Assembly (NCBI RefSeq): GCF_029227855.1 | Contig: NZ_CP074357.1 | Length of the DNA: 64,000 nt | Strand: one strand, 5' to 3' | Origin: Escherichia coli | GTDB taxonomy: Bacteria > Pseudomonadota > Gammaproteobacteria > Enterobacterales > Enterobacteriaceae | Shown: positions 54,501 to 63,500 of the stretch, in pieces | How positions within the stretch are numbered: position 1 is the stretch's first letter | Layout of the letters: each line of letters begins with the position of its first letter | Position numbers: made by a program

Positions 54501-57500
54501 AATACTTTCTCCAATCATTCTTTAGTGAACATCCTTAAAAGTGGAAATGTAGGTTTATGGGTTTATGCATTTTCCTGATGGCCTTGACAACCAAGGATTT
54601 CACAGAAATTGTCACAGTGTGAAGCTGTAACAAAGCGCTCTCCACGTTCGAATCGCTCAACCAAATCCTTTCTTACTTCACTTCCAGGTTTCTGGAAGAT
54701 GTACTCAAGCTGGAGATCCTCGGCCGTAGAAAGTAGTCGTTCTATGCTGAAATCAACATGGTAAAAGCAAAACTGATTATCAACCGGGGGAAAGTTGCTT
54801 TTGGTACTGTTCTCGTTTTTGGATTTTAGTTCATTCATGAGCTCTCCTTGGTTGAGAACAGTATACAAATCTCTTTAGGGATTTTTTTTCGTTAATAGCA
54901 CTTTTTTGAGTTTAAAGAGTATGTTCATACCAGAGCATTAGAGGCTACGAAAAGGATAATGGAATTAGAAAGATAGATTTTAAGTGGTGATGTAAGGTGG
55001 GATAGGTAGAAGAGGAGTAGACGCTTGTAAGCGAGGCAAAAAAAAGGCACGGAAACCGTGCCATAAGAGTATGTGAGAAAAAATCAAAATCAGGGAAAGA
55101 ATCAAGCAGCTTGTGAAACTGAATCTCCAACTGCAAGATTTAAATTTCTTAGGTTATCGAAAACTTCAGATACTAAGTCATTACGGTCGTGGATTTTAAT
55201 CCGCCCACCGGTTAACTCTGAAACATAAACGGTATGGCAGAGGTCAGTAACCACTTCGCCGTATTCATCAACGACTTCCAAAGATGCAATCATCGGAATA
55301 TAAGAAGCCGCAGCATAGCTCTCATAAATACTTATTATGGAGTCATTGTTGCGTCGAGAAATTACCCTACCAGAAGGTAAAGCCTCATCTTCCATATAGC
55401 AATCAGATAGGTCCTCACAGAAGTCATTTTCTTTAAGTGAAATATTAAGGGTCAATTCACTGTTGATAGAGCGTGAATAAGAATATTCACTCAGTTTATA
55501 GCAAGCCAAACTAATATCACTAAAAGTTTCATAAGCTTTATAGAGGCTCGATGTTATAGACTCAGATACAAATGTTATTAGTCCAATAAAATGAGTATCC
55601 CAGAACTGTTGCAAAGCAAAACGGGCAATCATAACCTGACCATCAACCTGCATCAGTCTGTTATATTCATCCCGGTCATAACCTTTCGACTGAGAAACAT
55701 CATTAGACATGCTAAGAACTTCACTACAAACATCATCATATTCAAAACGACTAGTTGCAAAGTGTTTTCCTGAAATTTCAAGGTACTGACCAGAGACTGC
55801 GTCAAACACCTCAAGAAAGTAACAGAGTCGCGATTTTAAAGATTCTCTGTTTAAAGCTTCTATTTCATTCTCAGAGATACTATCGACATATAAATCAACA
55901 GCATTCTTGAGTTCAATAGCTTTGATATTACAGGTAAAAGAAAGCTCGTCACTTTGACAATGGCAAACACTTAATACTATATCCGCCTCATCAAAATCTA
56001 TGCCAAGATAACTCAGAACTGCTCGGACATAGTTTTTATCATCAGATGAATGTGTCATATACACTACCTCGAATTTGAGAGGAAGTGCCCCAGAAGGGAA
56101 GCGACTTCCCCACTGGGTTAGATAAAAATTTGGTTAAGCTAAAAGAAGATGCCAGCGACAGATTTTACATTGTCATAGACAAGTGTCTTCAGCCAACCAA
56201 AGTTACTTTTTTGGACTGAAGCAAAAGGATCATTGAGACGCGTTACGAAAATCGTCAAAAGCTTCAGTTATTAGTAATGTGCGATCAGTTACTCTGTATC
56301 GGTCATTACTTTCGAGAGATACGTAAGTTGAATGCGAAGAATCACAGACAACACGCCCTCTTTTATTGATCAATCTTACTTCCATCATCACCGGCACATT
56401 GATAATTGAAGCAACATCGGTATAGAGGGATATGAGGGCATCATTGTCACAATATAACGCCCCGTTCCCATCAAATGTATCGTTAAACTTAATATATATA
56501 TCTGGCATATTTGCCGGATAATCATCAGTATTGAAATCAATGCATAACTTTAAGTCATCATTAATACGGCGATTAATCTTATGCTGCCCTACACGTACAA
56601 AGCCATGTTCAACAGCTTTGATAATCCTTAAAGTTTCATTAAGACAATCTGTAATTCTTTTCTCGACAAATGAGATAAAGTCACCAAAGTCGGAATGAAA
56701 AAACTGTTTAAGTGCAAATTTCGCAACTAACACTTTCCCATCCACCTTCATTTTATCGAGATAAAGATTTCTTATAGCATCAGTAGAAGAATTAGCTTTA
56801 GATAACTCTTCACAGTCATTAATAATCATTGAAACAATATCAATAACTTTAACTGGGCTTAAAGTATTACTATATCCGCGAATATCAAACGTAAAAAATC
56901 CGAAATTCTTAAATACTCCAAGAAAATAAATTATTTTTTGTTTCAAAAGAATAGAATCGGAGTAAGATGCGTTGTGCTTTATTAGCTCAGATATGTAGAG
57001 ATCCAACATACAATTTAAATTATCGATATCTACATCGTAATCAAAGGTTACTTTGTCGAACGAAGTATCAGATAATTGAACGGTTATATCGTCAGCGGAA
57101 ACATTAAGGCCTAAATTTTGATAAAGAAAGGCACTAACAAATTCCACGTGGTCAGATTCTTTAAACATTTACACTACCTCATGACTAAAAAGGAAGTGCT
57201 TCCCACCGGGAAGCAGGTTCCCGGATGGGTTAGATTAATTATAAAAGAGTTCTTCAGAAGGTACATGCATTTCTGGTTTGAACTGTTTTAAGGAGTTGTT
57301 TATAGCTTTTCGATATAACCCTGAAGAGTGTGGCTTAAACATTTGATATTCCGTAACGAGCAGAGGAGACGTAAAGCATCCTAAGTTCACTAGTGAAATA
57401 CTTGATGTTTCTTCACAAACATCTAATTCAGCGTATATCCGCCTCTTCATTACCCTGCCTGCTAAATAGCGACGAACATGATTTATAAACTTGTCCGCAT

Positions 57501-60500: not shown

Positions 60501-63500
60501 AGAAATATTTGTCACAACGCAACAAACACGTTCCTGAAGGACGAACTACGTACAACAGGTTTCTGTCATTTTCTAATATGCTATGTTTCAAAATCGTTAT
60601 ATCTATCTCATTATCATGCAGCAAATAGCATGACGATGGTTCATTGACGATGCGCGATTTTATAACAGCAGCAAATTTATTAAAAACTTCGTTAATTTGA
60701 AAATTCATTAAAATGCTCTCCGATGTAAAACGACGAGCATCACCATAACGGTAATACTCCCGTTATGGGTTTTAATAGTTTATGGAATAACCATGTCATA
60801 CAACCGACCATAGCCAGTAGTACCGCACATTTATTTAACTGAGCAAGCATCTCAGCCGTGAAAAGACCTTAAAGGCAGGTAATTATCACGAAGGAAAGCG
60901 GTTATCTTATCAATACAATTTTAAAATATAATATTGATAAGATAACCCCCCCCGCAAAAAGCGGGGGAGTTATCGTTGTTACAGCTGATTAAGACATTCA
61001 GGAGCCCAGTGAATCGGGAATCCATCCTGCCCTGTTAACTGGAGAACATCGTTCCAGTCGATACCCTTTTTCCCATCAGGAATATCTTGTGCTGGTTCGA
61101 AGACTTCAATTGTCAGCTTTGATGCGGGATATCGTTTAGCCAAAAACTCAACCATGCGGCTTTGAAGTCGCTGAGCAGCTTCAATACCGGCACGAGTGCC
61201 TTGTGAGTTAGCAATATCCTTATCCGCCCAGATATAAAAGTTTATAGATTTTACATCCGGCGGAGGCAGTAAAAAATCAGGAACAGTAACGTTTTCAAGG
61301 CACCATGCGGAGCTGGCTGCCCAGCATGGTGTTGAAGTCGCTTCTACAACAGAAAGCGCGTTCTCGATCCCTTCAGCCACTCCCAGTGTCCAGGTCGAAC
61401 TACCTGAATCATAGTGAGGGTCAAACAACTGAATTGAGCCACCTGTCATATCGGCAGGAGGCTTCATCATCAGCTTTGGATTTTCTACAGGTGCCTTATC
61501 ACCATTTTTGTCTACGTATGTTCTATGAATAGTCAGAGGCCGACCTCGGGTGTCACGATAGATCGCAATCATTCCCGGATAGATAATCGATTTCTGCTTA
61601 TCTTTATCCCAATAGTAGATCCGGTTATTAAAGCCTAAATCCTTTGGTAAGTGACTCAGTAAGCGGGAGATCCCACGATTACGGAGGTACAAAGCAACAG
61701 GAGTATTAGGCTTGATTTCACCGGTATAGTGATACATCACATCAAGTTTTCGCATTCGCTTTGCCACTTCCTCTCGGTCAAGAGTTTCTGTGGCACGAAC
61801 TGCTGATTTATAGCGTCGTTCATTTTCAATGTCGGCGTCAGTTAACGGAGCATGCAGATCCATCCCGAAAAAATCTGAGAGAATCTTTTTGCAAGTCTGC
61901 GTTTTACTTAATTCATAATATTTCGCCAGAACATCAATTCCGTCGCAAAACTCATTTACCGGAAAGTCATTATGGATCGCACATCCGGTATAAAGGTCTT
62001 TTTGTCGGAAACGAAACTTCGATTTCCCTGCGCCAGTAAACGGGCAAGGAACCTGGCTCGGGGCTTTTGCACAAGCGTCTTTGAAAGCAGGTATTCTTTC
62101 GAATATATACTTCCAGCCAGACACTTCAGCAATTCGAGCATGAACGAGTTTAATAAAGTGTTCAGATACTTCCTGTGGATTACGACGAAGAGCCGGGGAT
62201 GCATAAGTCATGATGATCTCTCTTATCTGGCATTGTGAGTTTCTCAATGCCTTCTGCGGTGCAGAAGACAGGGAGAAACCCACAACGCAGAATTTAAGAA
62301 AGAGGGCCCGGGGGCCCTCAACATTTATGCTTCAGTCGTGAAGCCATTATTCTCAAGACGCTGTATGTAGTTATCTACAAGTAACGCAGCCTGCTGGCTA
62401 TTACCCTCCGCTATAGTGACTTCGCGGAAGATTCTTTCCTGAGGGCTATCATTGCTTATAACTTCACCAACACGTCCGAAAATACGGACTTTATGCATCG
62501 CACCGACTTTTTCATGTTCTACACGGTAAGTTTTTATCTGAGTCATATTTTGCTCCTTATTCCTTCATGGAGCAAAAAGACCCACCGGGGCCTTTTGCCC
62601 CGATTGGGTAGAGTTTATTAAGAAAGTATTTGATGAACTAGCTTACTGACTTCAATAGACAATAAAGAAGTATCATCAACTGTTACGAAAGTGTCCGTTT
62701 CAAAACCAATTATTTCATCAGTCTTAATACCAACACCAACGATTTCTATTCCATTACATTTAGCCTTTTCCATAACTTCGCCGATAGTAAATTCCGATTT
62801 ATTCGGATAACCATCAGTTATAAGAAAAATTATTTTCCTATCGAATTGGCTGTCAAGTAACAGATCAACAGCTGCCATTAAAGCCGATCCCGTAGGGGTA
62901 TAATAACCCTTACATCCAAGAGTGAATTTCGATAGAGATTCCTCAACGCTTTGATCAAACGTTTTGATAATCTCAAATTCACTTTCCTTGAAGGGAAAGA
63001 CTATATTGGAGACATGCATTTTTGACAAACTTTCAGCGGCCATCGATAAAGCAAGATCTGACTTAATGGCATGAATATATCTTTCATCATTAGCCATTGA
63101 CGCTGAAATATCACGAACTAATACGAGGCCAACATGCCCTCTATTTTTAGATTCGCTTTGAGCTCTGAAGACATCACGAACTCCCATTGGTGACAGAATT
63201 AATCGATTTCCATCGAAGGTAATTCCACGCTCATGAGTTTTGTTTCGGCCACGCATTTTAACCTGCTGTAAAACAGACAAGTCGCTACCGATTGAATGAC
63301 TCAGAGACAAAGCCTCATTGTAAACATTCAAATCGATAAGGAGATCAGGGATATCCCATTCAGAAGCACCGAATTCGGCTTTCACGTCATCGGATACTTT
63401 TGATGCAATACCTTCAATCTCTTTAGCCAAAGCATCGTGATAATCTTCGCTATCCTCATCACTGCCAAGAAAGGCATCCAACAAATCTGCCAGTATCTCC

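Follow-up and report, generated by a model that had tools for sequence, protein, structure and literature searches.

The 64,000-nucleotide (nt) stretch of Escherichia coli DNA analysed here (contig NZ_CP074357.1; hereafter the window) is part of an IncHI2 plasmid backbone and contains an array of six minus-strand genes, which we designate A to F. Judged from profile comparisons and structural models, A, B, C, D and E are five ancient paralogues of a single uncharacterised fold, and they fall into two deep branches, A/B and C/D/E, that are joined via E. The array is the distal third of a co-oriented string of about 15 cistrons and about 16 kb in the IncHI backbone. From hyp125 to A, a covarying RNA module of two hairpins lies before most of the cistrons, and its second hairpin pairs the Shine-Dalgarno sequence. 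We regard these statements, together with those made below on the growth, inheritance and expression of the array, as very probably all correct.

Relationships among the array proteins

A previous reading of the DNA (hereafter the sequence-only reading) had proposed six co-oriented minus-strand open reading frames (ORFs), and their coordinates and sizes were borne out by ORF calling (Table 1). The same reading had described A and B as paralogues. A BLASTP comparison confirmed this relationship, with 27% identity over the full length (E 5e-37), while C and D are weakly similar to each other and the remaining pairs gave no BLASTP signal. Orthologues were gathered from seven further arrays and the resulting family profiles were compared: C+D matched E at 95.5% (E 1.6e-8), A+B matched E at 84% (E 7e-6), and A+B matched C+D+E at 93.6% (E 2e-7). 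The three profile alignments that link A to E are all collinear and comprise 180-255 columns each. As negative controls, seven unrelated neighbour families from the locus were compared with the A-E profiles and scored at most 1.2%. Gene F scored at most 1.3% against every other member. Thus, the proposal of six paralogues holds for A to E, for which BLASTP, profiles and predicted architecture agree, but not for F.

AlphaFold models were obtained for A (predicted local distance difference test, pLDDT, 89; predicted template modelling score, pTM, 0.82) and for E (pLDDT 84, pTM 0.78). In both, the order of elements is the same, with a central helix of about 45 residues between an N-terminal and a C-terminal alpha/beta domain. 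Since C and D sequences were also present in the alignment behind the E model, this model is no independent test of E versus C/D. It is the profile comparisons together with this matching architecture that show a five-gene family with two branches.

Hydrophobic residues (M1, L12 and F148) occupy the columns that C, D and E share without variation, and no catalytic constellation is visible in the A/B alignment. Moreover, no polar residue is conserved family-wide in A to E, which argues against a shared active site. Sequence prediction gave neither a signal peptide nor a membrane segment for the array proteins. Protein A is acidic (isoelectric point 4.3, net charge -30) and has a disordered C-terminal tail with an invariant -AA end.

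The C-terminal tips are conserved within each orthologue group, past tails that are variable or, in the A and E models, of low confidence. The tip of A (55102-55130) reads -AA in all 18 A-type rows of alignment A1; of five more distant A-type proteins examined, three have it as well. C ends in acidic residues followed by L-(L/F)-Y-(M/N), or acidic-LLYM (57235-57258), D in -RYNY, and E in GRNxD(L/I)GLxDF (59230-59262). The -AA tip of A is a putative counterpart of the ClpX recognition tail (degron), the tip of C of the acidic-hydrophobic tail tip of the single-stranded DNA-binding protein SSB, and the DLGLxDF tip of E of a sliding-clamp-binding peptide.

The family searches support the earlier statement that neither a known family nor a catalytic motif can be recognised. 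No match was found in NCBIfam for any of the six proteins, PADLOC returned no family for any of them at E values up to 1, and PHROGs gave matches at chance level only. Pfam contained nothing below an E value of 0.001 for A, C, F or the 46 members of alignments A1 and A3, which represent the A-E families. Likewise, no Pfam, NCBIfam or PHROG profile of the known anti-restriction and anti-defence families (ArdA, ArdB/KlcA, ArdC, PsiB, Acr and others) matched, and PDB sequence searches with both family profiles yielded nothing significant. A word-indexed search of 5.8 billion proteins identified 28 matches for A, 7 for E and 26 for C+D, and a search of 1.84 billion representatives with a hidden Markov model profile of A+B identified 44; all were close relatives. 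Wherever the gene context of the recovered A-E homologues was examined, it was of the IncHI type. Among 50,697 phage records, tblastn found no match to A or D.

In the AFDB50 database, Foldseek related the A model to uncharacterised enterobacterial proteins of about 300 amino acids (aa), with 10-14% identity and template modelling (TM) scores of 0.6-0.69, and the E model to proteins of 306-308 aa, with 11-15% identity and TM scores of 0.5-0.6. The only other matches, both partial, were to a DUF1738 protein from Salmonella houtenae with 708 aa and to a protein from Klebsiella that bears the name NgrC (A0A5Y2S904, A0AAN2CGC7); we take DUF1738 to be the N-terminal domain of ArdC, and the literature on NgrC offered nothing relevant. 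The best structural matches of the A model were alpha/beta domains of CesT-like class I chaperones of type III secretion and of toxin-immunity proteins (ExsC, STM2138, SycN, VecA, TriX and TriTu), with 56-76 aligned residues; a clear superposition of the whole domain on the CesT-like fold was not obtained. As far as the models show, the A-E fold is without a recognisable solved counterpart, and the partial matches to chaperone- and immunity-like proteins would be compatible with a protein-binding role of A.

A two-hairpin module in front of the cistrons

The layout of the leader module is alike in every array spacer and in nine lineages. The first hairpin (HP1) is G+C-rich and near-perfect, and it starts 5 to about 30 nt past the upstream stop codon. 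Immediately after it comes the second (HP2), in which the Shine-Dalgarno sequence of the next gene forms the 3' arm; between the end of HP2 and the start codon there are 3-10 nt. The module was found in 43 of the 44 leaders from these nine lineages, and in 40 of 42 leaders at least 75% of the Shine-Dalgarno sequence is paired. For A and B, the sequence-only reading had reported an identical initiation context and a homologous upstream hairpin. Both are present in the C-B and B-A spacers, which share a hairpin starting TCTAACCCA and the start context GAGGTAGTGTA(A/T)ATG. The reading had also given each spacer a G+C-rich hairpin of its own; such a hairpin does occur in every spacer, but it belongs to an operon-wide module and is particular neither to its gene nor to the array.

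When the 75-nt leaders of the array were folded and compared with shuffled sequences, z scores of -4.4 to -8.3 were obtained, versus -1.1 to +1.0 for most leaders outside the operon. The leaders of hyp125, hyp325, the DUF3150 gene, the VWA gene, the 73-aa ORF and the primase gene are equally structured (z scores of -3.4 to -5.8); by this measure, no such structure is seen in the leaders of trhI, hyp290, the five small genes, Tus and Hha. Upstream of the array, the hairpin leaders were located at 62284-62324 (primase) and 62547-62617 (73-aa ORF) in the window, and at 21629-21691 and 22834-22895 (VWA and DUF3150) in locus L001.

A covariance model, R1, was built from the leaders of A and B only. 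It detected 42 copies at E < 1e-3 in eight loci. Of these, 41 are in sense orientation and terminate at one of the operon's start codons, and no copy was detected elsewhere in the 64-kb window. In the R1 alignment, 88% of the cells are paired versus 74% in shuffles. Furthermore, 103 cells changed on both sides of a pair, compared with 33.5 in shuffles (none of 500 reached the observed count) and 8-41 when the partners were slid, and all seven HP2 pairs show two-sided changes. MAFFT alignments of single spacers broke the stems, and the covariation counts derived from them understate the structure. Rfam 15 returned for positions 52000-64000 four chance-level matches only, far below the gathering scores. 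On the structural side, the leaders thus show what is expected of a gate that sequesters the Shine-Dalgarno sequence, that is, its pairing in a conserved helix with compensatory changes.

There are 80 G-U pairs in the helices, and of 44 leaders compared, 36 fold more stably as the sense strand than as the antisense strand (Wilcoxon p = 2e-6). Both findings place the structure in mRNA rather than in DNA. These two observations also bear on the possibility that the hairpins function in single-stranded DNA, either as priming sites for the neighbouring primase or as promoters on the single strand that is transferred in conjugation. Frpo-type promoters and single-strand initiation signals do consist of hairpins, and the primase gene lies directly upstream of the array. 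However, without exception the modules are aligned with a start codon and include the Shine-Dalgarno sequence belonging to it, and the stems are short (9-15 bp) and lack promoter boxes. A role in single-stranded DNA is therefore very improbable. An RNA thermometer, whose hairpin should be only marginally stable and melt between about 25 and 42 °C, was considered as well and rejected: with folding energies of -8.3 to -15.3 kcal/mol, HP2 is too stable, and the fraction of the Shine-Dalgarno sequence predicted to be unpaired is 0.12-0.29 throughout the range of 20-60 °C.

The spacer hairpins could also serve mainly in the processing or stability of the mRNA, as RNase III sites, exonuclease barriers or partial terminators. 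HP1 is very stable (-14 to -25 kcal/mol) and lies just 3' of each cistron, HP1 and HP2 abut and could stack, and an alternative hairpin with a T-run can be drawn in the E-D and C-B spacers. In the scan for U-tracts after spacer hairpins, only the alternative hairpin in the C-B spacer was listed within the array and, upstream of F, the hairpin that follows the primase gene; the other HP1 copies lack a U-tract. Moreover, HP2 always holds the Shine-Dalgarno sequence, 3-10 nt from the start codon in the nine lineages, which would be needless for a pure stability element. We regard such a principal role as rather unlikely, but it can coexist with gating of translation. A known system of this kind is the early region of phage T7, in which RNase III hairpins lie between the cistrons. 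The likeness consists in a structured element in every spacer of a long polycistronic unit, where processing could both protect the message on the upstream side and expose the ribosome-binding site downstream. By contrast, the array has two separate short hairpins instead of one long irregular stem, and Rfam gave no match.

Hairpins that occlude the Shine-Dalgarno sequence and enforce translational coupling are known from the coat and replicase genes of phage MS2 and from several E. coli operons. As in these systems, the downstream ribosome-binding site is paired in a stable local hairpin, and independent initiation should be poor. There are, however, differences. In the IncHI operon, a covarying module of two hairpins is repeated before about a dozen consecutive cistrons, and HP1 separates the occluding hairpin from the upstream stop codon, whereas classically the upstream coding region forms part of the helix. 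For the array, a dependence on upstream translation is a prediction.

Table 1. Features of the array, its leaders and the adjoining part of the operon in the 64-kb window
Feature	Position	Strand	Details
Intrinsic terminator after A	55038..55062	-	GGCACGG-ttt-CCGTGCC + T8 (hairpin 55046-55062)
Gene A	55102..56058	-	ATG start, 318 aa; GTG start at 56064 (55102-56064) gives 320 aa
Leader of A	56059..56119	-	HP1 CCCAGTGGGGAAG/CTTCCCTTCTGGG; HP2 CACTTCCTC...GAGGTAGTG, 3' arm = Shine-Dalgarno; R1 72 bits
Gene B	56230..57168	-	312 aa; full-length paralogue of A
Leader of B	57169..57231	-	Homologous to leader of A; R1 74 bits
Gene C	57235..58155	-	306 aa; C/D/E branch
Leader of C	58156..58213	-	HP1 15-bp perfect stem (58180-58213); HP2 CCCTC..GAGGG
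Gene D	58227..59159	-	311 codons; in-frame TGA at 58404-58406; product here 251 aa (ORF called as 251/256 aa)
Leader of D	59160..59221	-	HP1 CCCATGTGGGG/CCCCATATGGG; HP2 GTGATCCC..GGATCAC
Gene E	59230..60108	-	292 aa; bridging member between A/B and C/D branches
Leader of E	60109..60162	-	HP1 arms 60134-60142 + 60152-60160; HP2 GGCCTC..GAGGCT
Gene F	60187..60708	-	173 aa; unrelated to A-E
Leader of F	60709..60770	-	HP1 60743-60768; HP2 GATGCTC..GAGAGCATT
Non-coding stretch, primase gene to F	60771..60978	-	Terminator-like hairpin 60947-60969; A+T-rich inverted repeat, 23 nt, 60900-60947
Upstream operon cistrons within the window	60979..64000	-	Each with strongly structured leader
toprim/DUF7146 primase-like gene	60979-62211/62283	-	
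73-aa ORF	62325-62546	-	
CobT-like VWA gene, 3' part	from 62618	-	

The array in the IncHI backbone

In IncHI2A plasmids such as pESA136_1, the 5.8-kb array block recurs with 100% identity; the annotation of pESA136_1 lists all six genes as encoding hypothetical proteins. About 280 further plasmids, among them pHCM1 (IncHI1) and one IncHI1B plasmid, have the same six genes in a version that is about 67% identical, and a relative of protein A is encoded by 1,405 of 72,556 plasmid records. Moreover, IncHI1, IncHI1B and more distant relatives have the genes in the same order, and the array genes are listed in a published IncHI1 core-genome table (PMC5390554, Table S3). The low G+C content noted in the sequence-only reading is real, as the block is the minimum of the window (0.33-0.39 versus 0.41-0.66 over most of it). 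However, the foreign origin read from this composition has to be abandoned because the block is conserved, syntenic IncHI backbone that belongs to the IncHI1 core and occurs in about 1,400 plasmids.

The genes are transcribed from one strand in the order trhI, hyp290, hyp125, hyp325, CobS-like AAA+ ATPase, DUF3150, CobT-like VWA, 73-aa ORF, toprim/DUF7146 primase-like gene and then F-E-D-C-B-A. The trhI gene marks the end of transfer region 2, and three hypothetical genes lie between it and the CobS-like ATPase gene. Five small genes and a plasmid Tus homologue follow downstream of A. F heads the array in every lineage examined, and its profile shows weak similarity to that of hyp290, the first gene after trhI (25794-26666 in locus L001; 51.6%, E 1.5e-4, 117 columns). 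Thus, the head of the array and the first gene of the operon may be distant relatives.

All lineages have kept the strong terminator after A, with which the operon ends. Just past it, about 20 nt upstream of u1, the first small gene after A, lies the motif GATTTGTATACTGTT (about 54858-54872, minus strand), which is conserved in all lineages and includes TATACT; this hexamer may be the -10 box for the next unit, from u1 to Tus. A second conserved non-coding element is the spacer between the primase gene and F. Its core of about 110 nt is nearly invariant, and the inverted repeat at 60900-60947 has kept its outer half-sites GGTTATCT/AGATAA. Over its whole 270 nt, the spacer is 83% identical between IncHI2 and IncHI1, compared with 66-77% for the flanking genes, and is the best-conserved stretch of the locus, the DNA-identity values for the B gene and the A-u1 spacer being left out owing to alignment failures. 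This spacer could act as an internal promoter, an operator or a small RNA.

Growth, selection and expression of the array

The relatives carry two, four or five long genes per array. Loci L011 and L012 contain F, one E-type and one A-type gene, and L010 contains F, one A-type gene and one unplaced 295-aa gene. The Lelliottia type (L005 and L008) has the order F-E-C-B-A, and IncHI1, IncHI1B, IncHI2 and L007 have F-E-D-C-B-A. The latter order is also present in L009, in which E (5952-6701) is truncated to 249 aa, and in a Photorhabdus plasmid (L006, 8000-10600) the array has decayed to fragments of B and A. Very probably, the array expanded from F-E-A, an arrangement still found on distant relatives, via F-E-C-B-A to F-E-D-C-B-A by tandem duplication of a gene with its leader. 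The idea of gene plus leader as the duplicated unit, which had been put forward from the A/B pair, is upheld by the homology of these two leaders, both of which R1 recognises with 72-74 bits.

Between IncHI2 and IncHI1, the amino-acid identity is 48-64% for A to E and 69% for F. The ratio of non-synonymous to synonymous substitution rates (dN/dS), determined in three pairwise comparisons, is 0.13-0.24 for all six genes; the array evolves somewhat faster than the primase and DUF3150 genes and similarly to Tus. A to E are therefore in all likelihood old paralogues that are stably inherited under purifying selection. The term "diversifying", which had been applied to them, does not fit one-to-one orthologues across IncHI1, IncHI1B and IncHI2 with dN/dS values near those of neighbours such as Tus.

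The expression of the array can be judged from a proteomics study of four IncHI1 plasmids at 24 °C, in which the core genes were tabulated in map order (PMC5390554, Table S3). Rows 25-30 of this table, which are flanked by the 270-nt neighbour of the array and the primase gene and which we assigned to the six array genes by gene order, not by accession, were each detected in at least two plasmids by mass spectrometry. According to these order-mapped rows, all six array proteins are very probably expressed in IncHI1 plasmids.

In the window, D carries an in-frame TGG to TGA change at 58404-58406 (minus strand). Intact D orthologues have 311-322 codons, and the 59 codons past the stop are still in frame and conserved, lying within an alignment that is 88% identical to an intact orthologue. 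Other IncHI2 plasmids, two of which were inspected, have TGG and an intact D gene of 936 nt (311 aa). An exact match to the 59-nt stretch around the stop was found in 66 of 1,115 IncHI2 plasmids; the nonsense mutation is thus a minority allele, present in at most 66 of them. Because the TGA interrupts a 311-codon gene, the D-C "spacer" of 248 nt that results if D ends there is mostly the tail of D, and the true spacer has 71 nt (58156-58226).

The D allele, the truncated E in L009 and the decayed Photorhabdus array are what could be cited for the view that the ORFs are decaying, non-functional remnants. This view is hardly tenable in the light of dN/dS values of 0.13-0.24 for all six genes, intact orthologues across deep IncHI lineages, confident AlphaFold models of A and E, detection by mass spectrometry and the rarity of the D nonsense allele. 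Indeed, neither degeneration to pseudogenes free of conservation nor membership of a well-characterised family, the two outcomes that the sequence-only reading had named as refuting it, emerged from the cross-plasmid comparison and the family searches.

Distance from the transfer origin and the anti-defence hypothesis

The sequence-only reading took the pattern of the array to be typical of defence, anti-defence or effector families. As anti-defence or host-interference proteins, the paralogues would each neutralise a different host system during establishment of the plasmid. Several properties agree with this interpretation: the proteins are soluble, lineage-restricted and presumably non-enzymatic, the copy number varies, members are lost sporadically, A is strongly acidic, and Foldseek gave the partial match to the 708-aa DUF1738 protein, whose domain we assume to be that of ArdC. 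On the other hand, PADLOC, Pfam, NCBIfam and PHROGs gave no match. Furthermore, the array belongs to the core backbone, with stable one-to-one orthologues under purifying selection, and is no high-turnover island, and its proteins were detected in vegetatively growing plasmid carriers (PMC5390554).

The position of the array also has to be considered. On the 266-kb circle of pESA136_1, the mobH relaxase gene lies at 93.3-96.4 kb, mobI at 97.2-97.7 kb and the array at 234.6-240.4 kb. The origin of transfer (oriT) is assumed, from related elements, to lie beside mobI/mobH. Because about 124-137 kb separate the array from the relaxase gene and mobI, a location in the leading region, for which some tens of kb from oriT or the relaxase gene would be expected, is rejected; the array lies about as far as possible from the probable oriT and is not leading-region cargo. 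A run of small co-oriented hypothetical genes with a hok toxin gene and a DUF5417 gene was observed at 70-88 kb of pESA136_1 (L017), 5-25 kb from the relaxase operon mobI-mobH-traD, the distal end of which is at about 88 kb. This run may lie near the true IncHI2 leading region.

Plasmid leading regions are known to contain islands of anti-defence genes (Samuel et al. 2024, PMC11541004). The array resembles these islands as a plasmid-borne cluster of genes that are small to medium in size, lack enzymatic motifs and have no assigned function, but it differs from them in its distance from the relaxase gene and mobI, in being core and syntenic instead of variable, and in containing no known anti-defence family. 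Our survey of the literature on DUF3150 and on anti-defence and leading-region work in IncHI plasmids yielded nothing on the array genes, and the array region is not resolved in an experimental-evolution study of IncHI2 (PMC9599605). Taken together, the position, the core status and the evolutionary pattern of the array do not favour an anti-defence role, which we consider unlikely.

A possible role of the operon

The explanation that we prefer is a backbone operon that is gated by RNA and encodes non-enzymatic adaptor paralogues; as a whole, it is plausible without reaching the level of the probable, and its functional part taken by itself is doubtful. The hairpins would block independent loading of ribosomes at each cistron, so that each cistron would be translated only via coupling to, or activation from, the upstream cistron. 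Coupled translation would limit the amounts of the products and fix their ratio. As non-enzymatic binding, scaffold or adaptor proteins, A to E would work with the AAA+/VWA/primase module in the processing or maintenance of plasmid DNA, and the group-specific C-terminal tips (-AA, acidic-LLYM, -RYNY and DLGLxDF) may be docking peptides. Sets of CobS-like AAA+, CobT-like VWA, DUF3150 and primase genes are found on other mobile elements. Such a set directly adjoins the array in the same orientation and has the same leader module, but every recovered A-E homologue lies in an IncHI-type gene context.

Several points weigh against this explanation. Its functional half is derived from the gene context. 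Co-transcription is assumed from the common orientation, the short spacers, the shared leader module and the single strong terminator, and the spacer between the primase gene and F contains a terminator-like hairpin and could have a promoter of its own. The alignment used for counting covariation was fitted to the R1 model, which favours structure. HP2 starts 25-45 nt past the upstream stop codon, and HP1 lies in between. A terminating ribosome is therefore unlikely to melt HP2 directly, the more so as HP1 lies at a variable distance (5 to about 30 nt) from the stop codon. Finally, members are dispensable in places: D is truncated in the window and absent from the Lelliottia type, E is truncated in L009, and the Photorhabdus array has decayed. 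Such sporadic loss fits accessory proteins better than an obligate complex.

A bolder version of the adaptor hypothesis can be formulated, which we consider quite improbable. A to E would then represent a new family of hub-docking adaptors that combine one scaffold with different C-terminal peptides and link host replication and proteolysis to the plasmid primase and the AAA+/VWA proteins, and the leader would be a new class of cis-regulatory RNA that gates a 15-cistron operon, possibly via a trans-acting factor.

Relevance for the biology of IncHI plasmids

IncHI plasmids carry multidrug and colistin resistance in Salmonella, E. coli and Enterobacter, and about half of their core genes are without an assigned function. 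The repeated RNA module is unusual, and the A-E fold, which lacks a solved counterpart, is encoded in the core of these clinically important plasmids. Of six "hypothetical proteins", A to E can now be treated as a defined family with a confident structural model, a duplication history and operon partners, and the repeated RNA element probably sets the translation of a 16-kb backbone operon. The protein family and the RNA element provide experimental handles on a part of plasmid biology that is unexplored.

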